A stretch of 64,000 bases of DNA, from the IMG/VR virus record IMGVR_UViG_3300043811_000032, positions 34,692 to 98,691 of that record. The stretch is one strand, 5' to 3'. Source of the stretch: a virus. The translations under genes and the position numbers were made by a program. The notes beneath the pieces were generated by a model. It did not search any database, was not told the DNA's origin, and saw only the letters and a list, made by a program, of their open reading frames with translations. Of this stretch, positions 30,734 through 58,774 are shown in pieces. The stretch's first letter is position 1. Every line of letters begins with the position of its first letter.

Positions 30734-30751
30734 CGTATCACCTCTCCATAC

Positions 30752-30818
30752 ACCCTAGAAATAGAGCGGCAGGCCAGTAGGGTTGCACCGGCTTTTCGGT
30801 AGCGAGCCTAGCCGCTCT
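30752..30818 (-). promoter_or_regulatory. Predicted structured (pseudoknotted) RNA leader of the HNH gene
   Basis: Stem 30763-30773/30807-30818; inner hairpin whose loop region (30778-83) can pair with 30752-57 beside the RBS. Confidence 0.5.
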
Positions 30819-37577: not shown

Positions 37578-38130
37578 CGCACCCTCCGCCGCCCCGTTTC
37601 CCTTCTCCCCTTACCAGTGCCGTCTCCGCTCGGGGTCGAGCTGCTCTCACCCATATCGGCCTCTCTTGGACTCGCTGGTCTACCGGAGCAGCCTAGCAGA
37701 ACCAGCCACACAGAGAGATCCGAGCGTCTGACGTATACCGTATAAGTACGAGTTTAGGTTTCCGGTCGCCTGTCGAAAAGGAGCGGTTTCCACACGCTGG
37801 CCGTGGCCAGAAGGATCAACGGTCGGTCAAGCCCTTGCCTTCCCGCCGTCCTACGTTACCCTCGGGTGCGTCGCCCGGCTCGCCGGGTCGCACATTTTCT
37901 GGATACGCTTTTGATTCCCCGCGGCACCATACACCTTGTTATCGGTGTCCAGACCTCAGTCGGGTTCCTGTGCCGCCTCCCAGACCCTCGGGAACTGCCT
38001 CCCGACGGTACGCCCTATCTCACCACGTTCGGCCCGAGGTGGTTTGCCAAATACAGGCTAGTGAGCGAGTTACGTGGACCATCGCCCGCCTCGGTTGCAG
38101 CTGCTCGCTGCGCTAACAGTCGCCTACTAT
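37578..38130 (-). other. Non-coding, hairpin-dense region at the divergence point (candidate ncRNA or origin)
   Basis: No credible ORF; at least six nested stems; followed by an AT-rich tract at 38130-38300. Confidence 0.4.
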
Positions 38131-38262
38131 AAACTAGCTCGCCGAAAAAAGGGCGGGGAACACGACAAAAATCGAGGTAAAATTTCGTATTACTTGCGTT
38201 TCGTTAGTAATGGAACGTAACAAACTATTCGGCAAAATCCGACGCCCGCCCCGCGTTTGCTA

Positions 38263-38292
38263 TTTACTTAGCCGCCACCGCCGCATTAAAAT
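38263..38292 (+). promoter_or_regulatory. Putative early promoter
   Basis: TTTACT-N18-TAAAAT, same architecture as the 40163 promoter. Confidence 0.55.
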
Positions 38293-38388
38293 TGCCCGCT
38301 CGGACCCGGCAAGGTCAACCCGTTAACCACCGAACAGAGCAGCGGTACGTTTTCACCAACCCGTAACCTACTTGTAAGGAGACGTAAG

Positions 38389-40029
38389 ATGCCTACCCCG
38401 CGTAAGCCGAAGACCGAGCCCGAGGTCAAGTACCCCAACCTGCAGCTGGTCGCCTGCGTCCACGACTCGACGCCGACCGCCCCCGGCGTGGAGCGCTGGC
38501 CGGCGATGACGGCGGAGCGGATGAAGGAGCTGCTGGGCTGGGAGGCCGAGACCAGCGGTGAGGGCAGCGACAAGGTCACGTTCAAGGACTCGCTGTTCAC
38601 CGACTACGAGGGCCACGGCGTGCGGCTGCTCAATAACGCCCACAACCGCGACTTCGACGAGCCGCTGGCCAAGCGATACGCTCACGAGCACCTCAATAAG
38701 CACTGGAAGATGAACGGCGAGACGATCATCTTCTCCCGTTACGGTAACGTGGTAAGCGGTCAGCACCGCGGTGTAAGCATCATTCTCGCCGAGCAGCTCC
38801 GCACCAGCGACGCCCTCGAAGGTATGCCCAACAAGGCCAAGAGCCAGAAGCACCACTGGGAGGACGAGGGCTGGACCGGGCCGGTGACGATGGAGTGCCT
38901 GCTGGTATTCGGTGTTGACGAGGCGTCGGAGACCCTGCAGACCCTCGACAACGGGAAGCCGCGGTCGGTCTACGACGTGCTTTGTACGCTAGGGCACTTC
39001 CCGACCCTCAAGCCCAAGCCGCGCAAGGTAGCGGTGAAGGCCCTGGACTTCGCGTTGAAGCTGTTGTGGGAGCGAGCCGGCTACGACGACGCGGCTTGGA
39101 ATCTCTACCACCACGACCGCACCCACGCCGAGACGCTTGACCTGTTCAAGCGGCACAAGCGGATCGAGGCGGCGGTCAAGCACATAGTCAATACCGAGGG
39201 CGATGATGGCCGGCTGATATCCACCTACATCCCGCTGGGCACCGCCGCAGGAGTTATGTACTTGATGGCCGCTAGCGGGACCGCCGACGCCGAGACCAAG
39301 TACCGCCACGGTGACCCGCCCAACGAGCGGATGATCAACTTCGACCACTGGGATAAGGCCGAGCAGTTCTGGACCGACCTCGCGAGCAAGGGTGGCGAGG
39401 CACTGAAGGCGTTGCGGCAGTACATCACGGAGCTGCAGAAGGAGCGGGGCGAGGCGGGCATCACTCGCAAGGAGCGTATCGCCATCTTCGCCAAGGCATG
39501 GGTCGCATACTTGGGCGGCTCGGTGTCCAAGAAGGACTTGCACCTGGAGTACGGCACCAACGAGGCGGGCGAGCCGGTACTGACCGAGCACCCGACGTTC
39601 GGTGGCATCGACTGCGAGGAGGACGCCGACGTACCGAAGCTCAGCCCCGAGGAGCAGGCAGCGGCCAAGGAGCAGCAGAAGCAGGAGCGCATCCAGCGGC
39701 TCAAGGATGCCAACGACAAGAAGAAGGCGGAGAAGGCCACTGCCAAGGAGCAGGCTAACGATGCGGAGAAGGCCAAGCCCCAGACGCGCAAGGAGCTGGA
39801 GGAGTGGAACCGCAAGCAAGCGGAGATGGCTGACCAACAGGCAGCGAACATGATCGAGCAGGCCAATAAGACCGTCCCCACCAACGGCACCAGCGCCCCG
39901 CCGATCCCCCGCGTCAAGGGTGAAGTGCCTGCCCCTGAGCCGGTTCAGTACGACGCGGACGGGAAACCCCCTACACCAGCCAAGAAGCCGCCCGTGCCGC
40001 GGCGGAAGGCGGAGGCGGTGAAGTCGTAG
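38389..40029 (+). CDS. ParB/Srx-like (DGQHR-type) domain protein with long charged tail
   Basis: HNR...W..NGETIIF...G.VVSGQHR; strong AAGGAG RBS. Confidence 0.65.
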   Translation: MPTPRKPKTEPEVKYPNLQLVACVHDSTPTAPGVERWPAMTAERMKELLGWEAETSGEGSDKVTFKDSLFTDYEGHGVRLLNNAHNRDFDEPLAKRYAHEHLNKHWKMNGETIIFSRYGNVVSGQHRGVSIILAEQLRTSDALEGMPNKAKSQKHHWEDEGWTGPVTMECLLVFGVDEASETLQTLDNGKPRSVYDVLCTLGHFPTLKPKPRKVAVKALDFALKLLWERAGYDDAAWNLYHHDRTHAETLDLFKRHKRIEAAVKHIVNTEGDDGRLISTYIPLGTAAGVMYLMAASGTADAETKYRHGDPPNERMINFDHWDKAEQFWTDLASKGGEALKALRQYITELQKERGEAGITRKERIAIFAKAWVAYLGGSVSKKDLHLEYGTNEAGEPVLTEHPTFGGIDCEEDADVPKLSPEEQAAAKEQQKQERIQRLKDANDKKKAEKATAKEQANDAEKAKPQTRKELEEWNRKQAEMADQQAANMIEQANKTVPTNGTSAPPIPRVKGEVPAPEPVQYDADGKPPTPAKKPPVPRRKAEAVKS

Positions 40030-40082
40030 GATTGCCCGCAAACCGCTCTAGGGCTTTTCCTATCGTCGCGGCGCCCATAAAT

Positions 40083-40117
40083 ACGGCCCCTGCCCTAGCC
40101 CAGCAGGGGTCGTTTTG
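40083..40117 (+). terminator. Intrinsic terminator
   Basis: acggcccctgc/gcaggggtcgt stem followed by T tract. Confidence 0.65.
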
Positions 40118-40162
40118 CGTAACTACCTTACCTAATTGGGGTTAGGTAAATCGGATTAGTGC

Positions 40163-40192
40163 TTTACTTTCGGTAGCCGCCGCGACTATAAT
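40163..40192 (+). promoter_or_regulatory. Putative early promoter, leaderless transcript
   Basis: TTTACT-N18-TATAAT; ATG 6 nt downstream, no RBS. Confidence 0.6.
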
Positions 40193-40198
40193 AACGCC

Positions 40199-40426
40199 AT
40201 GAGATGCGAACACAAAGGCTGCGGCAACGAAGTACCCAAGCGGCGCCGCGGGCGTCCTCGCAAGTACTGCGACACCTGCCAAGCCCTGATGCTCAGGGAG
40301 AAGTCAGAGTCGCAGGCCGCTACCAGACGCGAGCTACGCCGCAAGCGTTGGAAGCAAGAAGGCAGGCAGACCTGCCCCACGTGCGAACAGTTACTACCCA
40401 AGTCCCGGCAAGGAGTACAGCGATGA
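40199..40426 (+). CDS. Small basic Zn-finger protein
   Basis: CEHKGC...GRPRKYCDTC...CPTC. Confidence 0.65.
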   Translation: MRCEHKGCGNEVPKRRRGRPRKYCDTCQALMLREKSESQAATRRELRRKRWKQEGRQTCPTCEQLLPKSRQGVQR

Positions 40427-42588
40427 AGAAGGCAGACGTAAAGGTTGGCGGTTTGTACCGAGCCAAAGTCAACGACCGGCTCACTACCGTCCGCGTAGAC
40501 AGCCTCAGCAACAGCGGCGGCTATAACGTCACGAACCTAACCACCGGCAAGCGGATTTTCTTCCGCTCAGCGATGAGGTTCCGCGAGGAGGCCAAGCAGT
40601 GCCTCAAGGGCGGGGTAGTGGTCGGGTTGGAGGAGCAGACCAAAGCCAACCTCGCTCGTGCCGACTCTCACAAGTACAGCAAGCCAGTTGAGGAGGTCGC
40701 CGTCGAGCAGCCCCCTTTCGAGCAGACCCTTGGTGGCTCGCAACTGCAGTCGCCCACGGCCGCTTCCGCCGCCACGGCAACCACCCCCGCACCGGCGAAC
40801 TCCCAACCGGATACGAGCCCAACCTGCTCACCGGACGCTGCCGCTGCAAAGCCTGCGTCGCCGCCCGCCTCGCCCTCTGGCAAGGCTGCTGAGCACGAGT
40901 GCTGCAGCCTGCCTACGAAGCGGACCTACATCGGCGGACGTCCGGCGACTCGGTGCTCCAAGTGCGGTACGCACTGGTACACCGACATCGCGGTCAAGGA
41001 CGGCGACACCCTGCTCAAGACGCCCCGTCCCGGCTTGGCCGCGATGCTCAAGGGCAGTATCCAGCAGGCGACCAACGGCAAGCACCCGCCCCACGTAATC
41101 GTTGAGGCACGTGCTGGCACCGGCAAGACTACCACGCTGGTCGAGGGGTTGAAGAAGGTCAAGGGCTTGCCCGTCTCCATCACGCCCTCGCCCCAGCAGG
41201 CGGCGGTATGGGAGGCGATGGAGCAGAGCAAGGACGCCAAGAGCATCGCCTTCGTGGCGTTCAACAAGTCCATCGCTACCGAGCTGCAGCGCCGCGTGCC
41301 GCAGGGCTGCGACGCCAGCACGATGCACTCGATGGGCTTCAAGGCGGTTCAGCGGGCGTTCGGTCGCTGTCAGGTGGAGAGCTACCGCGTCAGCAACATC
41401 ATCAGCGAGCTGCTGGAGCGGGACATTCGCGAGCTGCGCAAGTACGAGCCCGACCTCGTCAAGGCGACGGAGCAGCTGGTGGGTCTCTGCAAGATGAACC
41501 TGCTCGGCGGTAATCCCGAGGAGCTGGACGAGCTGGCCCGCTACTACGACGTGGAGATGAACGGTTCGCGGGCGAAGGTCTTCGACCTGGTGCCCCGCGT
41601 GCTGGAGCGGTGCAAGGACGTGGCTAAGGACGGCTGCGTGGACTTCGACGACATGATCTGGGCTCCCGTCGCCCTCGACCTGCCGGTATTCAAGTACGAC
41701 CTGCTACTGGTCGACGAGGCACAGGACCTCAACAGGTGCCAGCAGGCCCTCGCCAAGAAGGCGGGCAAGCGGCTGATCTTCGTCGGTGACCCGAAGCAGG
41801 CCATCTACGGCTTCGCTGGGGCCGACGCCAAGAGCATGCACCGCCTCCACGAGGAGCTGAGCCAGCAACCCACCGGCTGCATCAAGCTGCCACTGACCGT
41901 CACCCGCCGCTGCGGCAAGGCCATCGTCGCCGAGGCCCAACGGTTCGTACCGGACTTCGAGGCGCACGAGAGCAACGGTGCCGGCAAGATTAGCCAGGCC
42001 CAGTACCCGAAGGAAGGCCAGACGGCCCCAGACTACACCGGTAGTGTGCTGGACGGCGACATGATCCTGTGCCGCGTCAACGCACCGCTCGTCAGCCAGT
42101 GCTTCCGGTTCCTCAAGGTCGGTCTCAAGGCTAACATCCAGGGACGGGACATCGGGCAGGGACTCATCAGTACGGTCAAGAAGCTCAAGGCCCAGAGCAT
42201 ACCCGACCTGACCGGCAAGGTGGACGACTGGCTGTACAAGGAGCAGAGCAAGGAGCGGGCCAAGCGGAACCCGAACGACGCCCGCCTGATCGCCCTGCAG
42301 GACCGAGCCGACTGCCTGCACTGCTTCACCAAGGGTTGCGAGACGGTGGACGACGTGATCCGCAAGATCGAGAGCGTGTTCACCGACAACAAGGACATCA
42401 CCGGCATCCGCCTGAGCAGCTGTCACAAGGCGAAGGGTCTCGAAGCCAAGCGGGTGTTCTTCATCAACACCAAGGACGCCCCGTGCCCGCATCCTATGGC
42501 CAAGCAGGCGTGGGAGCGGGAGCAGGAACACAACATCCTGTACGTGGGCATCACGCGGGCCATCGAAGAGTTGATCTGGGTTTCTTAA
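40423..42588 (+). CDS. UvrD/Rep superfamily I helicase
   Basis: ARAGTGKTT, AFNK, VDEAQD, VGDPKQAIYGF, HKAKGLE, YVGITRA. Confidence 0.93.
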   Translation: MKKADVKVGGLYRAKVNDRLTTVRVDSLSNSGGYNVTNLTTGKRIFFRSAMRFREEAKQCLKGGVVVGLEEQTKANLARADSHKYSKPVEEVAVEQPPFEQTLGGSQLQSPTAASAATATTPAPANSQPDTSPTCSPDAAAAKPASPPASPSGKAAEHECCSLPTKRTYIGGRPATRCSKCGTHWYTDIAVKDGDTLLKTPRPGLAAMLKGSIQQATNGKHPPHVIVEARAGTGKTTTLVEGLKKVKGLPVSITPSPQQAAVWEAMEQSKDAKSIAFVAFNKSIATELQRRVPQGCDASTMHSMGFKAVQRAFGRCQVESYRVSNIISELLERDIRELRKYEPDLVKATEQLVGLCKMNLLGGNPEELDELARYYDVEMNGSRAKVFDLVPRVLERCKDVAKDGCVDFDDMIWAPVALDLPVFKYDLLLVDEAQDLNRCQQALAKKAGKRLIFVGDPKQAIYGFAGADAKSMHRLHEELSQQPTGCIKLPLTVTRRCGKAIVAEAQRFVPDFEAHESNGAGKISQAQYPKEGQTAPDYTGSVLDGDMILCRVNAPLVSQCFRFLKVGLKANIQGRDIGQGLISTVKKLKAQSIPDLTGKVDDWLYKEQSKERAKRNPNDARLIALQDRADCLHCFTKGCETVDDVIRKIESVFTDNKDITGIRLSSCHKAKGLEAKRVFFINTKDAPCPHPMAKQAWEREQEHNILYVGITRAIEELIWVS

Positions 42589-42607
42589 CCAACGAAAGGA
42601 GTCTGAG

Positions 42608-42910
42608 GTGCTTGTTTTATCGAGACGTAAGGGTGAACGCATCGTCATCGGCACTGCTGATAACCCCATCACCGTCGAGGTGGTGGAAATCCGCGGCGAC
42701 CGCGTCAGGCTCGGAGTTGTTGCCAGCAAGCAGGTGCCGGTACACCGCGAGGAGGTCTGGACCGCGATCCACGGTCCTCGTCTCCGCCGCGTCTGCAGCT
42801 GGTGCGAGACCGTGATGGACGAGGGCACCGAGGGCGCCGGAACCACCCACGGCATCTGCGGCGGCTGCAAGGACCGGGAGCTAGCGGCGATGCCGAGGGC
42901 GAACGAGTAA
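42608..42910 (+). CDS. csrA: CsrA/RsmA translational regulator fused to a Zn ribbon
   Basis: MLVLSRRKGERIVIG...VRLGV...VPVHREE plus CSWC...THGICGGC. Confidence 0.9.
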   Translation: MLVLSRRKGERIVIGTADNPITVEVVEIRGDRVRLGVVASKQVPVHREEVWTAIHGPRLRRVCSWCETVMDEGTEGAGTTHGICGGCKDRELAAMPRANE

Positions 42911-43023
42911 CTGGGGTTGGCGGGGATCGTAGCCTGGAAGCCGCGAAACGGTCTAAAAGTGGTTCGACGTAAGGGGCCATAAAGGCGCTTAGAACCTGCC
43001 CCACCAACCCGAGGAGGACAACC

Positions 43024-43380
43024 ATGACCGCCGCACGTATCGACGACGTGTTCTATCCGAAGGGTCACGACCTCACCGCGTATCAGGCACTCCGCGCCTT
43101 GGGAGAGAGCGTGCAGGCCCTGCGCAAGATAGGCGACGCTATCGACGAGGGTGGCAAGCGGCGGGAGCGGATGGCGGTGGCTAGCTGGGCGTTCGAGGAG
43201 GCTGGCTGCCCCTATGAACGGTTCGACGTCGCCGCGTGGGGCTACATCCGCGAGGGGGACGTCTACCTCGACTCCCTCCGCGACTTGGCCAGGGAGTTCG
43301 GCGTCAAGTTCTCGATCCGTCGCGGCACCGCCAGCGCCGAGGCGGAAGCGTGGCTCGTGCTGGCGATGACGGGGGGTTGA
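43024..43380 (+). CDS. Hypothetical protein
   Basis: GGAGGA RBS. Confidence 0.65.
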   Translation: MTAARIDDVFYPKGHDLTAYQALRALGESVQALRKIGDAIDEGGKRRERMAVASWAFEEAGCPYERFDVAAWGYIREGDVYLDSLRDLAREFGVKFSIRRGTASAEAEAWLVLAMTGG

Positions 43381-43381
43381 G

Positions 43382-43564
43382 ATGAAAGCGATGACACCGA
43401 AGGAGTTCAAGGAGGAAATGCGGAAGATATTCCCCGTCAATGAATCGGAGGACACCGAGAGTGCCCACGGCTCTGGGGACGCCTTGCTCTGCGAAGTGTT
43501 ACGGAGCCTCGGCTACGGCGACGGGGTCAAGATATTCGAGGAGGCCGACAAGTGGTACGGGTGA
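43382..43564 (+). CDS. Small conserved phage protein (H...D.LLC.VL.SLGY...F...KWY)
   Basis: Coupled; familiar phage motif. Confidence 0.6.
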   Translation: MKAMTPKEFKEEMRKIFPVNESEDTESAHGSGDALLCEVLRSLGYGDGVKIFEEADKWYG

Positions 43565-43950
43565 CCGACTGCCCGATGCTGGAGGCCGTTCGCCAGTGCG
43601 ACGGCGACCTGACCACACTGCTGGTGGCCTGCGACTGGCTCGACGAGCATGGCAACCCGTCGCTGGCGGAGGAGTGCCGCGACGCGCTGACGAATAAGGA
43701 GCCCAACGTCTGGGAAGAGGTCAAGGACGCTCAGGACTGTCAGTGGTGGAGGGGAGGCCTCGCTGGAGAAAGGGAAGATAGCAACCTAGCGGATTACCTG
43801 TTCTCGCTGCTGGATGGCAAAGACAGGGAAGATTACTACGTCCGCTTTGGCACACGCGATGGTCTCAATAGAGAACGGGCACGCGACGCCGCCCTCCACG
43901 CTCTGCGACGGGCGGTGGCCAGACTAATGGAGGCACGATGGACGAGTTGA
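43561..43950 (+). CDS. TIGR02996-like domain protein
   Basis: LLVACDWLDEHGNPSLAE. Confidence 0.6.
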   Translation: MTDCPMLEAVRQCDGDLTTLLVACDWLDEHGNPSLAEECRDALTNKEPNVWEEVKDAQDCQWWRGGLAGEREDSNLADYLFSLLDGKDREDYYVRFGTRDGLNRERARDAALHALRRAVARLMEARWTS

Positions 43951-43998
43951 TGATCTTGTGGCTGGTAGCGATCTACCTGTTACTGAGGAGGGCATGAG

Positions 43999-44187
43999 AT
44001 GAGCAAGCGAGTGAGCTTTGTCGTGAGCGTCGAGCAACCCGATGACGTGTCCGTGCCGGAGCTGCGGGAGTACATCAGGGAAGCCGTCGGTGCCTGGTGC
44101 AAGGGAACCTGCCCTGACGACCCGATCTTCGACTTGGATGCCGACAAGGTGAGGGTCCGTAGGCAGCGGAAGGTGGTGCAGAAGTGA
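43999..44187 (+). CDS. Hypothetical protein
   Basis: GAGGAGG RBS. Confidence 0.55.
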   Translation: MSKRVSFVVSVEQPDDVSVPELREYIREAVGAWCKGTCPDDPIFDLDADKVRVRRQRKVVQK

Positions 44188-44564
44188 CGTTCGATCCGAT
44201 GAAGTGGTTCGAGTCGTTCCAGAAGGAGCGGCCCGTGTACGGCACCATGGGTGGCGAGCCCACGCTGCCGGCTATTAAGCCCAGCGACACGCTAGACGCG
44301 GCCGAGTACATCAACGGACCGGTGGAGGCTCCGCCCCGTCCCCGCTACGAGGGGCCACTGTTCAGCGTGGTGGAGATGGCGGACGGCAGGGGCGGGTCGG
44401 CGTTCGGCATCCGCCGCAACGACGGGCTGGGCCGCTGGCACCCGACCCGCTACCTGCATCTGGAGGAGGCGGAGAGCTGGAAGGATTGGCTCGTGCTGGA
44501 ATGGCTAGAGGGGCGGGAGACGGTGCTGATAGAGGGGTTCAGATGCACCAAGCTGGAGGAGTGA
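44184..44564 (+). CDS. Hypothetical protein
   Basis: GTGA overlap. Confidence 0.55.
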   Translation: MTFDPMKWFESFQKERPVYGTMGGEPTLPAIKPSDTLDAAEYINGPVEAPPRPRYEGPLFSVVEMADGRGGSAFGIRRNDGLGRWHPTRYLHLEEAESWKDWLVLEWLEGRETVLIEGFRCTKLEE

Positions 44565-44670
44565 TCATCATGTCGCCAGAAGACAACCCGGCAGACGATC
44601 AAGAAATGTCTCGGGAAGAGTACGAGGAATGGGAGCGACGGCGAGACGAGCCTACGCCTGTTCTTGGGCG

Positions 44671-45087
44671 TCAAGGATCGCGAGACCCCAACTCGAACAG
44701 AATGTCGCCGATGGGGAACGTGGGCGGTGGGGAGCCGACGCCGATCAGCCCCAGCGACGCCAGCCCGGCAATGTAGGCGTTGCCGCCGTTGCTGGCGTCG
44801 GTCAGTGCCACGCCCACGACCGTGTTCCAGCTACCGGTGGGGGTCGGCCACTGCACGGCGGTATTGTTCCAGCTGACACCGCCCGACGCCCCAGCGTAGT
44901 TGATAGGGGACGGGTTCAGCTGGGCACGCTGGTAGCCGCCGCCACTGGGCTCGCTGATGGTGCTGCCAGTGGCGTCAGGGTCCGGCCACGCAGTCAGCAG
45001 CGCGAAGTAAATGTTGCTGGGGAACGTGAACGTCGTGCCCTGGAGCAGGTTGTTCAGGACCCCGTTGCGGAAGTAATCAAACAACAT
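44671..45087 (-). CDS. Minor tail / fibre-associated structural protein
   Basis: YFALLTA.P...[10 protein letters not shown]...N...[20 protein letters not shown]. Confidence 0.75.
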
Positions 45088-45124
45088 GGGAGTTCAGTTC
45101 TTCTCTTCTTATAAGGAGTTTGTC

Positions 45125-45871
45125 ATGCGTCGCAAGGGGTTCACTCTGATCGAGCTGCTGGTGGTGATTGCCATCATTGGCGTGCTGGTTGCCATGTTGA
45201 TGGTAGCCGTGCAGAAGGCGAGGGAGGCAGCGAATCGCATCAGCTGCGTCAACAATCTGAAGCAGATCGGTCTGGCCTGCCACGTCTACCACGACGCGGT
45301 GCTGACCATGCCGACGGAGCAACCGACTACGGGCACCGCGACATCGCTGTACACGACCTTGTTGCCTAATATTGAGCAGCAGAATCTGTACAACCAGATC
45401 GTCGGAGGCAGCGGCACTCCGGTCGGGCTGAAGATTTACACGTGCCCGAGCCGACGCACTCCCACCCAACCCTTCCGGGACTATGTCTACTACAACCCGA
45501 CCGGCTTGGGGCAATCGAGCGTCTTCGGTGCCAAGGGCGGCGTGTCGCTGGGCATCCTGACGAACGCTAACGGAGCGAGCAACACGGCCCTGCTGGCCCA
45601 CGTGTTCTTAGCACCGTCTTCCTATGGTCAACTGGACCCGAGCGGCGGGGGCTGGAACACTATGAACAACACAGCGTCCTCGGCCACGCAACAGCAGGAT
45701 AGTAACTCAAGCGGGTCAGCGGGTCTTGGCGGGCCACACCCCAACACCGATCCGATGCTTTTCGCGGACGGCCACGCGCAGAACATCGCCTTCCAGTGGT
45801 GCACCGCCAACCCGAACCCGGCACAGTATATGTGGAACTACCTCAACACCAACCCCTACGCGCTGCCATGA
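45125..45871 (+). CDS. DUF1559 prepilin-type N-terminal cleavage/methylation protein (H-X9-DG)
   Basis: RKG|[13 protein letters not shown]...[24 protein letters not shown]; CPSR; [12 protein letters not shown]. Confidence 0.95.
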
Positions 45872-45993
45872 AGATGCTGGTCGTGCTGCTAATCGTCTTC
45901 CTGATTTGCATCGTCATCGGGACGCTGATGCCCTGCAACGAGCAGCTGGACAAGCTCGCTCAGGACATCGTCGACTCGGTAACTCCGAAGTAA
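45868..45993 (+). CDS. Small membrane protein (41 aa)
   Basis: [18 protein letters not shown]; ATGA overlap with the pilin gene. Confidence 0.5.
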
Positions 45994-46802
45994 GCCCGGT
46001 CCACCGACTCGCTGCCCCAGCAGGCGAGGCTCCCATCTGCGCCGCCGGTCACGTGGGGACGGAGCCCCACGTGGCTGGTCTTTACCTTCGTCGTGCCCAA
46101 CACCCGCAGCCCCATCTCCGCCGCCCAGTGCCCCAACAGCCAGTCCTCGGGCACGAACTCTGCTCGCACCTTGCCATCGACCACCCGCACCCTGCTAAGG
46201 ATCTGGAAGCCAGGGAACTCGCCGCACCACGGCCCGAGCTTGATCACCATGCAGCCGGTGTTCGGACACAGGCACTTGGGTCTTCCGTCGAAGCCGCGAT
46301 CCGGTTCCTGCCACGCCGACAGCAGTCCCTCCAGGTCGAACGTCGGCTCCTTCATCCAGCGTAGCTCGCTGAGCGTTGCCTTGCGGTGTAGTCCCCACGG
46401 GTCGCCCAGTGTACCTACCGAAGTGCTCAGCGTGCCGGCGTCGCTCTTGAGTACCACGCAAGCGTGGATTATATCGCCGCCGCTCTCCTCCAACTCGTCG
46501 ATCAGCACGTCTAGCCAGTGCTTCGTCAGCGGCACCACGTCGGCGTGCAGCATGCAGAAGTAACTGTAGTGCAGTCCCGGCGGTATCGCCCCCTCGTTGT
46601 TCAGGCAACGAGCCCACAGCTCGTTGAAGGCATGGGGCAGCACCGAACAGGGTACTGGGTCAAGCACGGCGCCGTGAGCCTGCCGTTGCGGGTCTACGCT
46701 GTACTGGTAGACTGACTGCACGGTCTGGTAGTGGATGTTCTGATCAAACGGGATGCCTAGGTAGACTACTTTGGGTGTCCTGTTTTGCTGCAGATTCTGC
46801 AC
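45960..46802 (-). CDS. GT-A glycosyltransferase-like protein, virion-module paralog 3
   Basis: YFCMLHADV, TLSTSVG, PNTGC, FPGF, VPEDW. Confidence 0.7.
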   Translation of the reverse strand: MQNLQQNRTPKVVYLGIPFDQNIHYQTVQSVYQYSVDPQRQAHGAVLDPVPCSVLPHAFNELWARCLNNEGAIPPGLHYSYFCMLHADVVPLTKHWLDVLIDELEESGGDIIHACVVLKSDAGTLSTSVGTLGDPWGLHRKATLSELRWMKEPTFDLEGLLSAWQEPDRGFDGRPKCLCPNTGCMVIKLGPWCGEFPGFQILSRVRVVDGKVRAEFVPEDWLLGHWAAEMGLRVLGTTKVKTSHVGLRPHVTGGADGSLACWGSESVDRAYFGVTESTMS

Positions 46803-47146
46803 GGTTGCACTCCGGGATAGAGGTGGGCTGCTTCAGGATGCGGACCCAGTTGCACGGGCAATCGCTCGATGATTCGGCCGTCTGGCAAGTTCTCCCACCA
46901 GAACGTGTGAATACGGCACAGCCAGATGCCCTGATCGACGATGTGGTGCATGCCATAGTTGCCACACCAGCATACACCGTCGTGGTGGATGTGCTGCCAG
47001 CCGTGGCCTGTGCCTTCGCAGTTCCAACCTTTGCACTTCTTACAATCGATGTCAGCGCCGCCGCACTTGGAGCACGGTAGACAACCGGCTCCCTTGCAGA
47101 ATGGGCACTCTGAGTTTGCGAAGTAGTAGCGGCGTGGGTTCATCAA
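46766..47146 (-). CDS. Cys-rich (DnaJ-type CxxCxG) protein
   Basis: CPFCKGAG, CSKCGG, CKKCKG. Confidence 0.55.
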   Translation of the reverse strand: MMNPRRYYFANSECPFCKGAGCLPCSKCGGADIDCKKCKGWNCEGTGHGWQHIHHDGVCWCGNYGMHHIVDQGIWLCRIHTFWWENLPDGRIIERLPVQLGPHPEAAHLYPGVQPCRICSKTGHPK

Positions 47147-49302
47147 TGCACGTCGTTGAGGGTGTAAGTCTGGCTGACAACAGCATCGGCCGACTGTCCT
47201 TGGATGACTATGGTCGTGAACGGGGGCACGGCTACGGAGGCACCGATGTTGTTCGAGTTGCCATGCACAGCGGTCATGTAGTCGTAGCTGGCCTTGTCGG
47301 TCGAGTTCGGGAACGAGATGCCGTTGTTTGTCGGTCCCTGTCCGAACAAGTCACTGCATTGCCACTGTCCGTTCAGACCCGCGTTAGTTGCTCCGGTGTT
47401 CGTGTTCTCGATGGACATGCCGCCAATGATGCCACCGCCGTTCGAGACCGTGGTGATGGTCTGGAACCCGAAGGACGTGTTGAGCAGCGTGCCGGAGAAC
47501 TGGTGGTTAGTGAAGCCACTAGTACCTCCGCTTCCGCCGCTTGTCGTGTTGCTCAGGCACGTCGTCGTGTTCTGGCACATGAAGCACATCTGGCAGGTCT
47601 GCGAGTTGATGTAAACGCTGCCGTTGACCAGCCCCTGCGGTACCGTGTTCGAGTACTGGATGTAGGTATTGCTCTGCGAGCTGTTGCCCATCTTTTCCGG
47701 CACCCAGCCGCCGGTGTTGTTCAAGTTGCTCGCTTTATACTCCACCCACACGCTCTCCTGTGCCTGCAGGATCGTGTTCTGAGCGGCGGAGAATTGCGTG
47801 CCCGGCGAAGTGCCCGACGACTGGTTCGGCAGAGTGATGGTGATGCCGCTGCCGACGCCCGTGTCGTTCTTCATCAGGATGCGGCGACCATCCTGCGGGA
47901 TGTTGCCATCGTACTCGGTCATGCCGAGGATCTTGGAGTTGCCACCCGGCGTGATGTACCAACTGCTCGTCGGCGGGATAGCGACGGTGTTGTTGACCCC
48001 TGCCGTGTTGCTCAGCGCCTGCGAGCTAATATCCTTGCGGTGTTGCCGCAGAGTCTGGCCGGGGCACAGGCCCCAGTACCACGTCCACTTGGAGGTTGTA
48101 GTGTTGTATTTCCAGCTGACCGTATCTCCTGGGTTCAGGTAGACCGTTTTACCATCGATGGTGCTGAGCTGGTTCTGGGATGCCGACGTGCTTTGGTGTG
48201 GCATGGCCATGATCGCCGTGCCGACGTTAATCATCACGACCTGCGTGCCGTCGACTGCGTTTGTCGAGGATATGCCGGACATGACCATGTTGCTGGTCAC
48301 GTTCATCTTGTTGTAGAGCGCCGGTGTCGTGACCCCACCCGTGGTCTGATCGACGTTGTAATTGTTGACGTTACTGGATAGGTTCCGAGCAACGCCCTGC
48401 TGCACGAGAGAGCGGACGTAGAGCGGGGCGAAGAAGCTGGCGGTGTTGTAAGCCGGGCTCTGCGGTTTCATCCGCCCGACGCCGGACATGGTGACGCTAG
48501 AGAACTTCGGCCCCCACTGGAACCGGAACTCCATGTCCATGTTCGGGTCGATGTCATAATTACAGCGCAGACGAGGGTACATCCGCACCACGGCACCTAC
48601 TGGTACCCCGGTGTTGCCATTCTCCTCGTAGGCGGCGCGGAAGTTGACGTCGCCCGTGTTCCAGAAGCAGACGTTGCCGCCAAAAACGTACGGAGGTGGA
48701 GAGTCGCAGAGCACTATCTGGAACACCGAGCCACCGTTGACGTTCGGTAGCACTGCAGAGACCTTGAACAGTCCGTTGTAGCCATCACATGAGTAGCCCC
48801 CCTGTGGCCACACTCCGCCAGAGAAGGCGTAGGTCTGCCCAGTAGAGGGGTTGGTGCCGGTGGCGCCGCTGTAGTAGCCACCATACTCGGTAGGGTTGAT
48901 GCCGGCGATGACGACCGTTTGCCCCACCGCGATGAAGGAGGACAGATCCTCGATCAGGTAGATGGTGGCAGTGTTGCCGACGGCAGTAGCGTTGACTACG
49001 GTGCCTGTGGATTGGTTGGCGCAGTGGCCGATGAGCGGACCGTCCGCGTTCTCGCCAAACCACTCGCCTAGGTTGTCGGGCGTGAGCTTGGCGAAGCTAT
49101 ACGGTTGGTTGCCACCCATGATGATCCCGAGGAACTCGGGAGGGGGTGGCACGGCGCCGTACATGGATCCCTCGGCCTGCTGGACCTGGAGGGAGCCGTC
49201 GGTCCGCCAGTTGAGGGCGGTCTCGATGGCTTGTGCCAAGCGGTTGAGAGCTGGCCAGGCAGAAGGGTGGATGCCGGGCCAGTTGCGTGGGAATCTTGTC
49301 AT
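47143..49302 (-). CDS. Tail tip / fibre (receptor-binding) protein
   Basis: Asn/Thr/Gly/Ser-rich; tandem beta-domain repeat (VDGTQVVMIN / QDGRRILMKN); downstream of TMP. Confidence 0.65.
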   Translation of the reverse strand: MTRFPRNWPGIHPSAWPALNRLAQAIETALNWRTDGSLQVQQAEGSMYGAVPPPPEFLGIIMGGNQPYSFAKLTPDNLGEWFGENADGPLIGHCANQSTGTVVNATAVGNTATIYLIEDLSSFIAVGQTVVIAGINPTEYGGYYSGATGTNPSTGQTYAFSGGVWPQGGYSCDGYNGLFKVSAVLPNVNGGSVFQIVLCDSPPPYVFGGNVCFWNTGDVNFRAAYEENGNTGVPVGAVVRMYPRLRCNYDIDPNMDMEFRFQWGPKFSSVTMSGVGRMKPQSPAYNTASFFAPLYVRSLVQQGVARNLSSNVNNYNVDQTTGGVTTPALYNKMNVTSNMVMSGISSTNAVDGTQVVMINVGTAIMAMPHQSTSASQNQLSTIDGKTVYLNPGDTVSWKYNTTTSKWTWYWGLCPGQTLRQHRKDISSQALSNTAGVNNTVAIPPTSSWYITPGGNSKILGMTEYDGNIPQDGRRILMKNDTGVGSGITITLPNQSSGTSPGTQFSAAQNTILQAQESVWVEYKASNLNNTGGWVPEKMGNSSQSNTYIQYSNTVPQGLVNGSVYINSQTCQMCFMCQNTTTCLSNTTSGGSGGTSGFTNHQFSGTLLNTSFGFQTITTVSNGGGIIGGMSIENTNTGATNAGLNGQWQCSDLFGQGPTNNGISFPNSTDKASYDYMTAVHGNSNNIGASVAVPPFTTIVIQGQSADAVVSQTYTLNDVH

Positions 49303-50477
49303 CAGTTGAAAATGCTGTTCTTTGCGGGTTGCAAGACCGGGGTCAGGGCGTTGCAGTAGTAGCTCTGCACCTTGCTGGGCTGCTTGAAGATGAAGCTGTG
49401 ATCTTGCTCGTTGTAACGCCAGAACTGGCTGGAGTCGTTGGCGTGGTTCTTGGTGCCCAGCAGGGGCCGCCACCAGCGTTGCGTCGGGATGCTGAACACG
49501 AGGTTATGTCCGTAGCGGAAACCGCCGTCGTTCGCTTGCACGGCACCGACGGGGCACGGGTTGAAGTAGAGCCACTGCAGGTGGATGTCCCAACAGCGTG
49601 GTACCGTGCCGCTGTTGCTCTGGTTGCCGGTTCGTATCCGCACCGGCATGGTCCGCGGCGTGGCTCGGTAGCCCTCGAATAACATCGTGCCAGGTGGCAT
49701 GCTCATGAACTCGTTCTGGTTCACGGTGCCGATACACAGGTCGATGTACGGGAAGCTGACCGAACCGTTTCGCACCCAGTCGTCGCACACCTGCAACCAG
49801 TCGCAACTGACCCGGAATTTGGCCAGTAACAGAGCAAGGCCCTTACTGCCCTGCACTTGCTGCCCTGCACTCGGAGTAGGTCCGTAGGGCTTGTCCTGCC
49901 AGCGGAAGGCGTCTTGCTCTTGCTGTACAAATTCGTTTGCGGGCTCTCGACCCCATACACAATAGCGTTGCGCTTCGGCGGGGAAGTAAACACTGTCAGC
50001 ACCTGCGACAGCCGCATCGGTCAGGATGTCGTAGGGTGGGGTTTCGTACTCGACCGAGAACCGCAGCTGCCGCCACTTGTTGACAGTGCCACCGGCCGCT
50101 CCGTTGCCACCGCCGATGGGCAGCTGACCGCGGGAGCCGACTCCCTGCGGGTTGGAGACACTGACGCCCCACAGCCACGGAAAGAACGGATGCTGAACCG
50201 GCAGGGTGCGGTGCATCACGGCGTTGCCGATGCCCGCTGCTGTCGCTGGCCCACCCGCCTCGGAGTAGCCGATGATGCCGCTGATGACCTTGTCGCTGGC
50301 ATCGTCGAATGGGATCTGCCACTCCTCGGACCACGTGCTGACCCCGTAAGCGAACCGTCCGCCGAGCTGACCGAAGCCCTTGCCGATGTACTGCTGCGAT
50401 GGCTTGACGCCGGATATCTGCGGGTAGATCGTCCCCGGCAGCGGACCACCTGCGACGATGTTCGGCTGGTTAGCCAT
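49302..50477 (-). CDS. Distal tail / hub protein
   Basis: Directly after the tape measure gene; HPFFPWL, GTVN...F...PPGTMLF. Confidence 0.6.
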   Translation of the reverse strand: MANQPNIVAGGPLPGTIYPQISGVKPSQQYIGKGFGQLGGRFAYGVSTWSEEWQIPFDDASDKVISGIIGYSEAGGPATAAGIGNAVMHRTLPVQHPFFPWLWGVSVSNPQGVGSRGQLPIGGGNGAAGGTVNKWRQLRFSVEYETPPYDILTDAAVAGADSVYFPAEAQRYCVWGREPANEFVQQEQDAFRWQDKPYGPTPSAGQQVQGSKGLALLLAKFRVSCDWLQVCDDWVRNGSVSFPYIDLCIGTVNQNEFMSMPPGTMLFEGYRATPRTMPVRIRTGNQSNSGTVPRCWDIHLQWLYFNPCPVGAVQANDGGFRYGHNLVFSIPTQRWWRPLLGTKNHANDSSQFWRYNEQDHSFIFKQPSKVQSYYCNALTPVLQPAKNSIFN

Positions 50478-51378
50478 TGGCCGGGTTCCTCGGCTGGTCG
50501 TCGTTCTTACGCTTGGTGTTGTTGGCCGTGGCGCCGGTGTTCTCGGCGATCATCTTCAGGTAATGCTCTTGGCTGAACCCGCGGTTAAGTCCTGCGGTCT
50601 GGAATGACTTGCCCAGCTCCTCGATGCCAACGAGCCCGGTGCCTTGATGAGACTTGCCACGGGCCGATTCACCACCGCCCAGCCACTTGATGATGCCAAA
50701 CAGCAGGCGAGGGAAGAAGTTCATGATCTTGTAGAGGATGACGAACACTTGGGCCAGCAACTTGATGATCGGTGACAGCGCCTGTATGGCATCGCCGAAC
50801 TCCTGAACGACCGGGATCATCGCCTCCAGGATCGGTTGCAGTGCCTCGCCCAGCACCGCCATGATGTCCGACCATGCTCGGTTGAGCTGTTCGACCAGCG
50901 CTGGGTTGAACGCCCCCACGAAGCGCACGGCCATGTCAATGATCATGCCGATAGGGCCGAGGATCTTCGACAGTGCTCCGGCTGCTGCGGAAGCAGCTCC
51001 GCCCAGCTTGGCGATGCCACCGATGCCAGGTAATGCTCCCAGCACTCTACCGCCAGCAGCACCTACGCCCGCCCCAGCTCGGCTGACCATCGCCTGCCCG
51101 GCCTCGAACGACTTCGCCACCGGCGACATGCCCATGCTGCGACGCTGAGCCGACAACGCTTGGTTCATGGCATTGTTGGTGGCGTCCTGTATGATCTTCT
51201 CGAAGTTGGCCACAGCTGACGGCGACATCTTCGGGGCTAGCGTCTGCAGCGACTTCTTCATCGCCTCGATGGGTGCCATGTTCGGCACGATCATCACGTC
51301 GCCAAGCATCTTCTTCATCTGCTTGGTAGCTTCGCTCTGCGCCTTCGGGAATATTTCGATCTCGACCAGTTCTGCCAT
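50470..51378 (-). CDS. Short tape measure protein
   Basis: After the frameshifted chaperones; Ala/Gly-rich with amphipathic helical repeats. Confidence 0.65.
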   Translation of the reverse strand: MAELVEIEIFPKAQSEATKQMKKMLGDVMIVPNMAPIEAMKKSLQTLAPKMSPSAVANFEKIIQDATNNAMNQALSAQRRSMGMSPVAKSFEAGQAMVSRAGAGVGAAGGRVLGALPGIGGIAKLGGAASAAAGALSKILGPIGMIIDMAVRFVGAFNPALVEQLNRAWSDIMAVLGEALQPILEAMIPVVQEFGDAIQALSPIIKLLAQVFVILYKIMNFFPRLLFGIIKWLGGGESARGKSHQGTGLVGIEELGKSFQTAGLNRGFSQEHYLKMIAENTGATANNTKRKNDDQPRNPANG

Positions 51379-52194: not shown

Positions 52195-53031
52195 TTAGAT
52201 GCACCCCTTCAGTTGAAAGTAACTCTCGTCTCGTTCCTGTCCCCACGCTGTTGCCGACTGCCAGCATCCCACACCCCAGTGGTTCGTCGCCACCTTCTTC
52301 GTACCGCCCACCCGCACTCCGTGCCTGGCACACCACAGCCCAAAGTTCCAGTCCTCGGGCACGGTCAACGGCACGATGTCGCCGGGGATGTCGTCGGGCA
52401 GCAGACAATCAACTCGGTTCTTCTCGTCAAACTCTGCTAGTATGTGTCGCCCGTCTTCGGTACGGATTGCCAACCGGTCCACCTGTGAGAAGCCTGGAAA
52501 CGTTCGCCACCGCATGTCCCAGCGTAGCGCCATGCAACCGGTGTTGGGGAGAAGGCAAGGATTTCCACAGTGACCGCCGAAAGCTGTGAGCGCGTCTTGT
52601 GCCTCGAACGTGTCCGGCAGTCCTTGCATCTCCTTGGTCGTTATCTTCCGCACCCACTGATGCTGAACGTCTGCATCGCCGATAGCCGTGCTCGTGTGGC
52701 CCTTCTCATCTTTGATCGCCGTAACCGCGTGCATCACGTCGTAGCCGGAATCCAGCTCGTCGAGGAGTACATCGAGCCAGCTGCCCGTCTGAACCGTCGG
52801 CTGCACGTCCGCGTGGAGCATGCAGAAGTAGTCGAACTTCCCCGGCTGGTTGATCCACTGCGACCAGCAACAGTTGAAGTTGTACGCCAAGCAGCCGCTG
52901 GCCAGGTCGTACTCGAAGACGTCAGTGCGGTTGCTGGGTGCCAGCACCAGCGCCGCCTTGATCGTCTCGTGGCGAATCCCTGAATGGTTCGGGATCGCTA
53001 GGAAGCAGACTCTTTTCTTTGTATCGTTCAT
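52195..53031 (-). CDS. GT-A glycosyltransferase-like protein, virion-module paralog 2
   Basis: DYFCMLHADV, IKD.KG.TSTAIG, LPNTGC, FPGF, VPEDWNFG. Confidence 0.72.
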   Translation of the reverse strand: MNDTKKRVCFLAIPNHSGIRHETIKAALVLAPSNRTDVFEYDLASGCLAYNFNCCWSQWINQPGKFDYFCMLHADVQPTVQTGSWLDVLLDELDSGYDVMHAVTAIKDEKGHTSTAIGDADVQHQWVRKITTKEMQGLPDTFEAQDALTAFGGHCGNPCLLPNTGCMALRWDMRWRTFPGFSQVDRLAIRTEDGRHILAEFDEKNRVDCLLPDDIPGDIVPLTVPEDWNFGLWCARHGVRVGGTKKVATNHWGVGCWQSATAWGQERDESYFQLKGCI

Positions 53032-56592: not shown

Positions 56593-57530
56593 CAGAGTGC
56601 AATCCCTACTGCCAGATCACGGTAGCCGGCTAGCAGCTCGCGGATGCCTCCCCACTGGCGCTCGCGGAAGTTGAGCCCATACCCGTAGTCGCCCAAGTTC
56701 TCGTTCCCCACCTGCCCGCCGTAGGGCACCATCGTCCGCATCATGCCGCACGCCTCAGCGATGGCCAACTTGACGTCGTAGGGGATGCAATCGAACGTGC
56801 CGCCGGTGCTCGGGCCGTAGTTGGTCGCACTGTTGAACGTGATCGACTGGTTGTTGCTGCCGACGCTCACCACTGCCCAGTCGCCATTCCAGCCCACCGC
56901 GTCGTTCGTGATGGCGAAGGGCTCGGCCGGGAACACCACCACCGTACCGGGGAACGTCATCGTAGCCACGCCGTTAGCCCACGTGATGCTGCTGTAGAGC
57001 GTGGGGGGTTGGAAGCCGTAGTCGTACTGGACCTTGACGTTCCCGGCGCCGGCTGGCCACACCGGACCCTTGCTGTAGCTCAGTCCCTGGTTGCTAGACG
57101 GCGACATCCACTGGCTCGGCCATAGGAACAGGTTGTCCCTCATCCGTCGCAGGATGGCGCTCTTGCACAGCCCCGTCTGCTCCCACACCATCGAGTAGTC
57201 CACGCCGTTGGTCAGGAGCGTCTGCGGTCCGAACGGAGTGTAGTTGCTGTTGTTCTGCCCATAGGCGGCGAGCGGATCCCACCAGACGTTGATGACGTTG
57301 GTGATCCAGTTCTTCCGCAGGACGATGTCGCCGTAGTTCTTGCCGTCATAGTACTCAAAGAAGTTGCCCTGACCGAACCCCTCATTGGCAGTCAGGCCCC
57401 ACTTGAGCCAGCGCACCACCGCCCGCTCGACGAAGCTGCGCAGACGATCTATCTGCTGGTAAAGGGCACTACCGGGCTGGGCATTGCTCTTCATCGCAAT
57501 CAGGACATCTTGGGTCGTCATAAGACTCAT
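56592..57530 (-). CDS. Head-tail adaptor (gp6/gp15-like) with inserted beta domain
   Basis: EYYDG, GNVKVQYDYGF...IPYDVKLA, ENLGDYGY, ELLAGYR. Confidence 0.7.
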   Translation of the reverse strand: MSLMTTQDVLIAMKSNAQPGSALYQQIDRLRSFVERAVVRWLKWGLTANEGFGQGNFFEYYDGKNYGDIVLRKNWITNVINVWWDPLAAYGQNNSNYTPFGPQTLLTNGVDYSMVWEQTGLCKSAILRRMRDNLFLWPSQWMSPSSNQGLSYSKGPVWPAGAGNVKVQYDYGFQPPTLYSSITWANGVATMTFPGTVVVFPAEPFAITNDAVGWNGDWAVVSVGSNNQSITFNSATNYGPSTGGTFDCIPYDVKLAIAEACGMMRTMVPYGGQVGNENLGDYGYGLNFRERQWGGIRELLAGYRDLAVGIAL

Positions 57531-58774
57531 AGCAACTTCCCGTTCTCGATTCGACCACACCAGCCGCAGCCGCCCTCGATGGCGATGGCCGGCGACAGCG
57601 TCAGGTCCTCGATCCCCGTTCCCCTCGGCTCCCAGCAGCCCGGTCGTACCTTGCCGTGGAGCCCGCCCACCCACTGGCCGTTCTGCCCCGGAATGAACCA
57701 GCAGATGATCGGATGCCGCAGGTCCCCCTTACACTTGGGGCAGTCGAACATCACACCTTCGGCTTTGGTCAGTGACTGATGTCCTTGGATCGCGTTGGCG
57801 GGCAGGCGGGTCACGAACCTGCCGTTAAGCTTGTCCAGCGGCAGTGGCTCCTGCCCGATGATGTCCCTCGACCCCGCCCAACCGTGGTCGAACTTCTCGC
57901 CGCCCCACGCGCTATCGTTGCCGAACTTCTGTACTCCGTAGTGGTAAGTACGAACCTTGCTGGTGGCACCGACCCGCAGTCCCATCCGCGCCATCCAGCG
58001 GCCGAAGTTCCAGTCCTCGGGTACGCAGCTGCACTTCCGCGGCGTCTTCGCCTTGCTCAGCTCCGTGTGGTCGGGGTAGTGCGGCTTCTCCATAAACATC
58101 GGCCGCGGCGGTAGCCACCGGTCGTCGTGCCACTCGTAGAACTGGTCGCGGATCTCGAAGCCGGGAAACTCCCAGCACCAGTCCGCCATCTTGATCAGCA
58201 GGCACCCCGTGTTCGGCAGCAGGCACAGGTCGCACTGCCACCTCGGCTCGGGATGGGCCAGCAGCTTCTCGAAGCAGTTGCCTTGCTTCCACTCCAGGAA
58301 CTGCAGGCACTCCTCGACGCCGAACGTAAGCGGCAGCTGGTCCACCTCGGTCATCGTTAGCTTCCGCGCCTCGGTCCAGCGGTTGGATATCTGACCGACC
58401 GCCGTGCTGGTCATGCCACGATTGTCCTTGATCGCCACCACGCAACCCAACGCCGCGTACTTGTGTAACTCCAGCTCCTCGACCATCAGGTGCATGAAAT
58501 TGTCATTCGGCTCAACGTCGCTGGCGATCAGCAGGAAGTAGTCGTAAGGCCCTCCGTTCGCCTCGTTCGGGTCGGCCGTCGCATTGACGAACCCCTGCCA
58601 GCCGAGGTTGAAGCTATTCGCCAGCAGCGACTGCCCGGTGCGGTGGTCGAAGTTGATGAAGTAGTCGGCCCAGTGCTCAGCGTCAGCTCGCTTGTACTGG
58701 ACCGCTGTCAGCATGTTATCATTGTGATGCGTGTACGCGGGCGAGTGGACGTAGATGCGCTTCTGCTTCTTCAT
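57527..58774 (-). CDS. GT-A glycosyltransferase-like protein, virion-module paralog 1, with C-terminal DUF6527-like Zn domain
   Basis: YDYFLLIASDV, IKD.RG.TSTAVG, LPNTGC, VPEDWNFG; FDCPKC...LTLSPAI...CGWCG.I.NG. Confidence 0.72.
   Translation of the reverse strand: MKKQKRIYVHSPAYTHHNDNMLTAVQYKRADAEHWADYFINFDHRTGQSLLANSFNLGWQGFVNATADPNEANGGPYDYFLLIASDVEPNDNFMHLMVEELELHKYAALGCVVAIKDNRGMTSTAVGQISNRWTEARKLTMTEVDQLPLTFGVEECLQFLEWKQGNCFEKLLAHPEPRWQCDLCLLPNTGCLLIKMADWCWEFPGFEIRDQFYEWHDDRWLPPRPMFMEKPHYPDHTELSKAKTPRKCSCVPEDWNFGRWMARMGLRVGATSKVRTYHYGVQKFGNDSAWGGEKFDHGWAGSRDIIGQEPLPLDKLNGRFVTRLPANAIQGHQSLTKAEGVMFDCPKCKGDLRHPIICWFIPGQNGQWVGGLHGKVRPGCWEPRGTGIEDLTLSPAIAIEGGCGWCGRIENGKLL

Follow-up and report, generated by a model that had tools for sequence, protein, structure and literature searches.

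Why does a phage carry a gene of a cellular pilin-like family on the strand opposite to its own tail genes, and what could the encoded protein do in the infected cell? This question is raised by a DUF1559 gene in a 98,691-bp virus record of IMG/VR, of which we analysed bases 34692-98691 (64,000 nucleotides, here called the window; positions are window positions and the features of the locus are collected in Table 1). The record belongs to the direct-terminal-repeat class with a CheckV estimate of 100% completeness, and the contig is closed by an exact terminal repeat of 127 bp. Almost all of the approximately 128 phage ORFs lie on the minus strand; the DUF1559 gene forms a plus-strand cassette together with a small coupled ORF and comes after the only sizeable plus-strand block of the genome (37803-44564). 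The phage genome contains no tyrosine integrase, serine recombinase or resolvase, and the phage is therefore probably virulent.

Table 1. The DUF1559 cassette and the features that surround it, in window positions.
Feature	Position	Strand	Evidence or remarks
Sole sizeable plus-strand block	37803-44564	+	UvrD-type helicase, CsrA homologue, small ORFs
Gp80-like virion fibre/structural gene	44671-45087	-	PF23140 (E 2.7e-24); phrog_240 (E 4e-11)
37-nt spacer between divergent starts	45088-45124	+	CT-rich leader, AAGGAG; on the other strand, RBS region of the Gp80-like gene
DUF1559/SBP_bac_10 prepilin-type gene, 248 aa	45125-45871	+	Pfam, NCBIfam, alignment, AF2 model
Single-pass membrane peptide, 41 aa	45868-45993	+	ATGA overlap with DUF1559 stop; ORF also called by the source's gene caller
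GT-A-like gene	45960-46802	-	Atlas score 0.97 to viral clusters, one with GT2 on 14% of members
GC-rich hairpin, 15 bp, then CTTTACCTTC	46044-46079	+	51 nt past the peptide stop, inside the GT-like gene
Putative tail fibre/baseplate gene	47143-49302	-	Atlas leads, all <0.9: T4 gp9/10 N, Phage_fiber_rpt, Phage_tail_fib
Tape-measure-fragment-like gene	50470-51378	-	PHROG tape-measure families (E 1e-6 to 9e-5)

The initial annotation let the cassette begin at position 45086, as does the ORF as first called (45086-45871, plus strand): the gene itself proved to be real, but its start had to be moved. Because an AAGGAG Shine-Dalgarno sequence lies 6 nt upstream of the ATG at 45125, this codon was taken as the likely translation start, giving a protein of 248 aa with a 5-residue leader. 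The ATG at 45086 was rejected: it has no RBS, it would produce an atypical, non-basic leader, and its A and T lie within the codon from which the Gp80-like gene is started on the opposite strand. Read from 45125, the precursor begins MRRKG/FTLIE, with MRRKG as leader, cleavage before F6 and E10 as E+5 of the mature protein. The class III signal that had been proposed from the letters alone is thus present, with matches to the N_methyl profile PF07963 (34.9 bits, cut-off 21.2) and to TIGR02532 of NCBIfam (33.6 bits, cut-off 16.3); TIGR04294 was absent from the NCBIfam output for this protein. The SBP_bac_10/DUF1559 profile PF07596 was matched with 71.8 bits (cut-off 23.3; 66.1 bits in the whole-genome scan), a match limited to profile positions 1-126 of 268, as is expected for the short subclass of the family. 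In an alignment of 38 sequences, both the G/FTLIE motif, which falls in invariant columns, and the H-X9-DG end (H205-X9-D215-G216; residues 205-216, 45737-45772), which occupies invariant or near-invariant columns, could be followed, and close homologues carry the JGI name 'prepilin-type processing-associated H-X9-DG'. A scan for a sigma-70-like promoter of the cassette found none, and no k-mer motif was found that is common to the region upstream of the cassette and the promoter regions of the plus-strand block.

A confident AlphaFold2 model of the DUF1559 protein (pLDDT 91.3, pTM 0.86) consists of a helix spanning residues 8-59 and a beta-sheet domain, so that the SBP_bac_10-type domain with its long N-terminal helix, likewise part of the initial annotation, is recovered here as a PF07596 match and a helix of 52 residues. 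Exhaustive structural alignment with VIA-align returned type IV pilins or pseudopilins in each of the first 22 rows, PilA4, EpsG, CofA, PilV, ComP, PulG and FimU among them, with low Z scores of 2.4-4.9; a Foldseek search of the PDB gave no match at E <= 0.001. By sequence, solved pilins match the DUF1559 protein in the N-terminal helix only.

The second ORF of the cassette is joined to the first by an ATGA overlap, in which the TGA stop of the DUF1559 gene (45869-45871) shares bases with the ATG of the peptide (45868-45870). Residues 3-21 of the predicted 41-aa product are strongly hydrophobic and its tail is acidic; the ORF for a coupled membrane peptide is thus present as first described. 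With a GC3 of 0.86 and a GC2 of 0.21, the ORF displays the GC3-high/GC2-low pattern of real genes in this phage genome; over its final 34 nt it runs into the 3' end of the GT-like gene, which converges on it. It is an orphan: no relatives were found in 5.8 billion clusters nor in 1.84 billion representatives. Beyond the peptide, positions 46044-46079 form a perfect-core palindrome (CACGTGGGG..CCCCACGTG) that is unique in the window and is the sole terminator-like site that was found, with a weak U-tract. It lies in frame in the GT-like gene, at an insertion of a few residues relative to the two paralogues of this gene, and may, as judged from its sequence, be a candidate terminator of the plus-strand cassette.

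Concerning gene pairs of this kind in cells, a lipoprotein gene of 130-160 aa is commonly found 3' of long-class cellular DUF1559 genes, in some cases with an ATGA-type overlap, and the mature part of these lipoproteins starts with a shared motif of the type V-x-G-x-V-x-x-x-G-x-P (loci L148, L089, L162, L151, L153, L194, L009 and L193), which suggests that long-class DUF1559 and lipoprotein gene form a conserved two-gene unit. Could the 41-aa peptide have arisen from such a lipoprotein gene by truncation? This possibility was set aside: the nearest short-class homologues have no such partner, and the peptide exhibits neither a canonical lipobox nor detectable relatives.

Both genes flanking the cassette, Gp80-like and GT-like, are encoded on the minus strand, which places it antisense within the tail or late structural module, in keeping with the initial annotation. 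The minus-strand late block ends, downstream of the antisense cassette, with the Gp80-like gene (PF23140, the family of the Gp80 fibre of podophage GP4), which starts 37 nt away from the DUF1559 gene and in divergent orientation; the cassette is thus separated by one gene from the boundary of the plus-strand block. The GT-like gene is the upstream neighbour of the cassette in the late operon and belongs to a trio within the structural operon, being 40% and 34% identical to the genes at 52195-53031 and 57527-58774, respectively; the three paralogues (34-40% identity) have approximately 60 invariant columns. Farther structural genes comprise the fibre-like gene at 47143-49302, an unassigned 391-aa gene, the tape-measure-like gene and an HK97-type capsid gene. 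For the fibre-like gene, the start of which was set at residue 58 of a long ORF, there is no Pfam or PHROG match, and its Atlas leads come almost all from viruses; the 391-aa protein has only two relatives in the 5.8 billion clusters searched. IMG/VR single-protein scans with the Gp80-like or the fibre protein found no relatives of the phage. At the other side of the boundary, no terminator was found between the plus-strand block and the block of the Gp80-like gene.

As the source is a metagenome assembly, such an isolated plus-strand gene could in principle be host DNA misjoined into the phage contig. This would need two junctions only 870 bp apart, each of them falling exactly between or overlapping phage genes, in a contig that closes with its terminal repeat. 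Moreover, composition and codon usage of the cassette are no different from those of the phage: the GC3 of the DUF1559 gene is 0.80 (phage mean 0.75 +/- 0.09) and its codon adaptation 0.68 (phage mean 0.66 +/- 0.08). With an insert of 870 bp, phage genes on both sides and phage-like codons, an assembly chimera is very unlikely, to the point of being nearly negligible. No flanking direct or inverted repeats that would mark an insertion scar were found.

In order to trace the origin of the gene, we compared it with its cellular relatives, of which the family search, with 8,000 candidates scored, returned at least 7,924. The best relatives (72% and 71% identical) are both found on a single 8.5-kb JGI contig, with others at 59-68% identity. 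In a maximum-likelihood tree, the phage copy falls into a 13-row group without internal resolution (SH-aLRT 88) within a 15-row clade (SH-aLRT 98), all members of which are short DUF1559 proteins from metagenomes. Proteins from named Gemmatales and Gemmataceae are placed farther out in the same large clade, and the named Gemmatales relatives are 38-46% identical to the phage protein. In the comparison with Gemmataceae paralogues that the initial annotation called for, the large clade is thus shared and the closest relatives are metagenomic. The gene also points to the host lineage. Of five planctomycete genomes searched in full, two Gemmataceae MAGs matched best, and by sequence the host is probably a Gemmatales-like planctomycete, but the donor lies outside the reference genomes: across 267 genomes of the order Gemmatales, the best match is only 46% identical, and the donor lineage is therefore unsampled.

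The phage copy shares with the short (approximately 250 aa) cellular DUF1559 proteins of Planctomycetota a signal peptide of class III, a long helix at the N-terminus, conserved Cys, His and Asp positions and an H-X9-DG terminus. It differs in having the shortest leader peptide (5 residues, as opposed to 7-26), in being phage-encoded and in its coupling to the orphan peptide. The design of the spacer ahead of the gene, a pyrimidine tract followed by GGAG, 6-9 nt and the ATG, is shared with the cellular homologues L082, L084 and L085, which suggests that the gene was captured together with its own translation signals. The contigs of L082 and L084 look cellular, with long non-coding flanks in L082 and a downstream ORF in L084 that, on inspection by eye, looks like a Ser/Thr protein kinase; a further homologue contig (L086) has an ORF with an undecaprenyl-diphosphatase-like N-terminus, also judged by eye. 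Taken together, the position within a metagenomic clade of cellular type and the cellular-like leader and RBS identify the gene as a captured prepilin gene of cellular type.

Is this capture unique? The initial annotation had suggested that the prevalence of the family in other phages be determined. There was no match to the DUF1559 protein in GenBank phages, PHROGs has no DUF1559 family and returned N-terminal pilin matches only, an IMG/VR single-protein scan with the protein found nothing, and the searchable literature yielded no report of DUF1559 in phages. However, 230 loci with relatives could be collected from IMG/VR, not all of them phage-borne. Among them, three other phage lineages were confirmed to carry DUF1559, near replication genes or near rIIA/rIIB, so that the present phage is not the only one with such a gene. 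The first lineage is represented by a 171-kb record estimated to be complete that carries two DUF1559 genes (L051, 10001-11074, and L056, 2902-10981). One of them, flanked by genes for a dNMP kinase and for a PD-(D/E)XK nuclease, belongs to a module with RecA, DnaB, primase and split Pol III-alpha, and the other is found approximately 3.3 kb downstream of PSCyt1-PSCyt2-PSD1 and DUF1501 genes, which are planctomycete-specific families. In a relative of this phage with approximately 79% DNA identity, the copy of the replication module is kept at 89% protein identity. In the second lineage (L034, 9989-18751, standing for 8 contigs), the co-oriented gene lies approximately 5.7 kb upstream of rIIA, the only one of the two rII genes that was matched, and in the third (L065, 9992-15763, standing for 4 contigs) it lies approximately 1.3 kb upstream of rIIA and rIIB, again co-oriented. 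One further candidate, L027, was rejected as a host flank beside a prophage end.

These genes resemble the present one in combining intact N_methyl and DUF1559 regions in genuine phage neighbourhoods. They differ in belonging to the long class (310-357 aa) and in being co-oriented with replication genes or near rIIA/rIIB. Their similarity to the present copy is mainly N-terminal (approximately 43-68% over residues 1-63 to 1-111), the best match of the present copy to any IMG/VR locus being 40% over 168 residues; as long-class genes with mainly N-terminal matches, they therefore represent independent captures. Because these copies lie in early or replication regions, the linkage to receptor-binding genes in the present phage may be accidental. 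This also bears on the notion that the pilin-like protein works together with the fibre genes, be it as a membrane-anchored factor for tail assembly or exit or as a part of the particle. The position between the Gp80-like and fibre-like genes would fit such a role, yet the gene lies on the strand opposite to the structural operon, its class III signal peptide directs the product to the inner membrane, its orthologues in cells are close and the other phage copies are found in replication or early regions, all of which make a virion function highly improbable.

Has the gene remained functional since its capture? The alignment with 37 homologues has 74 columns with a conservation of 85% or more, and in 73 of them the phage copy keeps the consensus residue, the sole departure being a conservative V-to-A change. 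Measured to the outgroup, its distance of 0.425 falls mid-range for the clade (0.408-0.474), and its terminal branch of 0.24 is near the median of 0.19. The DUF1559 copy thus looks intact, constrained like its cellular relatives and fully functional, and very probably represents a functional captured envelope gene. Against the initial proposal of a captured pilin acting as a decoy, there is no sequence mark of a defective or dominant-negative subunit: almost all conserved columns are kept and the rate of change is normal.

These data also allow us to weigh whether the gene is simply a recently captured passenger of no benefit to the phage, picked up because the hosts carry 60-150 or more copies. 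Copy numbers in planctomycete genomes are indeed very high (PMC10632474; PMC8567305), the cassette is found near a module boundary, and no phage relatives were found that would show retention at the site. Nevertheless, an intact gene with phage-like codons and no acceleration of rate is hardly what a passenger would look like; in addition, the cassette leaves little room on either side (37 nt to one neighbour, -34 nt to the other), and other phage lineages hold DUF1559 at a protein identity above that of the surrounding DNA. We thus consider a passenger improbable.

If the gene is functional, the question becomes what benefit it confers. The planctomycete expansion of the family that was stated in the initial annotation is well documented, DUF1559 being the paralogue family with the most members in planctomycetes: it forms the largest paralogue group in P. 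limnophila, with 68 genes, two of them essential (PMC10632474), and T. immobilis, a member of the Gemmataceae, encodes 91 proteins with both domains, 25 of which were detected, mostly in membrane fractions (PMC8567305). In T. immobilis, genes encoding signal peptides are frequent neighbours of the DUF1559 genes (PMC8567305), and in R. baltica the DUF1559 genes respond to stress (PMC2754498). A demonstration of DUF1559 proteins as filament subunits or as phage receptors was not found in the literature searched.

The stress response in R. baltica (PMC2754498) would suit an alternative in which DUF1559 serves the uptake of substrates at the envelope, for instance under phosphate starvation, and is boosted by the phage in the way of the cyanophage pstS. 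A copy that looks like a normal working orthologue is compatible with this, as is the second copy of the 171-kb phage, which adjoins the planctomycete envelope families PSCyt/PSD1 and DUF1501. The regulatory context, however, offers little for such a role: no Pho box with <=3 mismatches was found in the 220 nt upstream, using consensus sequences of the E. coli and B. subtilis type (the planctomycete box being undefined), the nearest cellular homologues likewise have no box of either type upstream, and the upstream DNA of the phage gene is coding sequence of the Gp80-like gene. The neighbours of the cellular homologues, by eye the kinase-like ORF of L084 and the undecaprenyl-diphosphatase-like ORF of L086, are also unrelated to phosphate. 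A nutrient-scavenging helper is therefore fairly unlikely, if less far-fetched than a mere passenger.

The reading that we prefer treats the DUF1559 prepilin-type gene, the coupled peptide and the probable hairpin terminator as a captured accessory cassette that acts on the envelope of the host. The phage genome contains neither a prepilin peptidase (Peptidase_A24) nor a second N_methyl pilin gene, and the DUF1559 protein would therefore depend on host factors for processing and assembly. Because the phage encodes no peptidase of its own, it would be the host prepilin peptidase that cuts and methylates the precursor in the infected cell. The processed protein would then join the inner-membrane pilin pool and be used by a type IV filament or type II secretion-like machinery of the host, as a working subunit and not as a defective decoy, and the most likely benefit would be that the altered surface fibres or envelope stop further phages from adsorbing to or entering the infected cell. 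Late transcription could silence the antisense cassette, such that early expression would be favoured. For the 41-aa peptide, an action on the same membrane machinery may be envisaged.

Precedents for both components come from other phages. P-FimU of F10-like Pseudomonas phages is a minor pilin encoded inside the tail cluster that is built into the pilus and blocks the adsorption of competing phages, P-PilA is found in Xylella prophages and in several virulent phages, and PilA-like genes occur in non-temperate phages (PMC12952977). The DUF1559 gene is likewise a phage gene for a pilin-type protein that resembles a host envelope protein and, as for P-FimU, is found within a tail gene cluster; it differs in its antisense orientation and coupled peptide. 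Furthermore, protein family and host phylum are others than those of P-FimU and P-PilA, and DUF1559 proteins are putative pilus subunits at most. For the peptide, a counterpart is PfsE, with which Pf filamentous phages block type IV pili: this small protein of the inner membrane binds PilC (PMC8764522). Both are very small phage-encoded inner-membrane proteins (for the 41-aa peptide by prediction), but the peptide has no sequence similarity to PfsE and lacks its aromatic YAWGW motif; the shared role is one that we infer. The analogy to P-FimU, with its gene likewise located among tail genes (PMC12952977), makes it plausible that the DUF1559 protein serves to exclude superinfecting phages or to mask the receptor. 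As a whole, a functional host-derived envelope cassette with an exclusion pay-off is a tentative statement to which we would give slightly less than an even chance, and superinfection exclusion as the specific mechanism, being argued from analogy, appears possible but rather doubtful.

Since phages keep only genes that pay, a DUF1559 copy selected by a phage narrows the search for the function of the family, and such a single copy lends itself to expression in a tractable planctomycete in order to probe the role of DUF1559. The gene also hints at the host of a 99-kb phage that is otherwise an orphan. If our reading is true, phage-encoded pilus components would extend to a new protein family and a new phylum. 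A far broader scenario can be drawn, although we regard it as unlikely to hold: DUF1559 proteins would supply the variable subunits in type IV filaments of planctomycetes, which phages exploit or which shield the structures that phages exploit, the expansion of the family would be driven by phage pressure, and phages would repeatedly capture copies so as to rewire the infected cell's surface, in the present case as a two-part pilus-control cassette (working subunit and PfsE-like micro-peptide) linked to the fibre genes of the phage.

Three further observations concern the remainder of the genome. The CsrA homologue of the plus-strand block (42608-42910, plus strand; PF02599, E 5e-19) exhibits a Cys-rich C-terminal extension. 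Directly after the last gene of this block, an acidic 68-aa ORF without a family match (44570-44776, plus strand) extends by approximately 105 nt into the Gp80-like gene, which converges on it, at the 3' end of that gene. Finally, an int-alpA RNA motif of Rfam was identified on the minus strand at 30751-30818, with 42.1 bits (E 2.5e-5) and thus above the gathering score.
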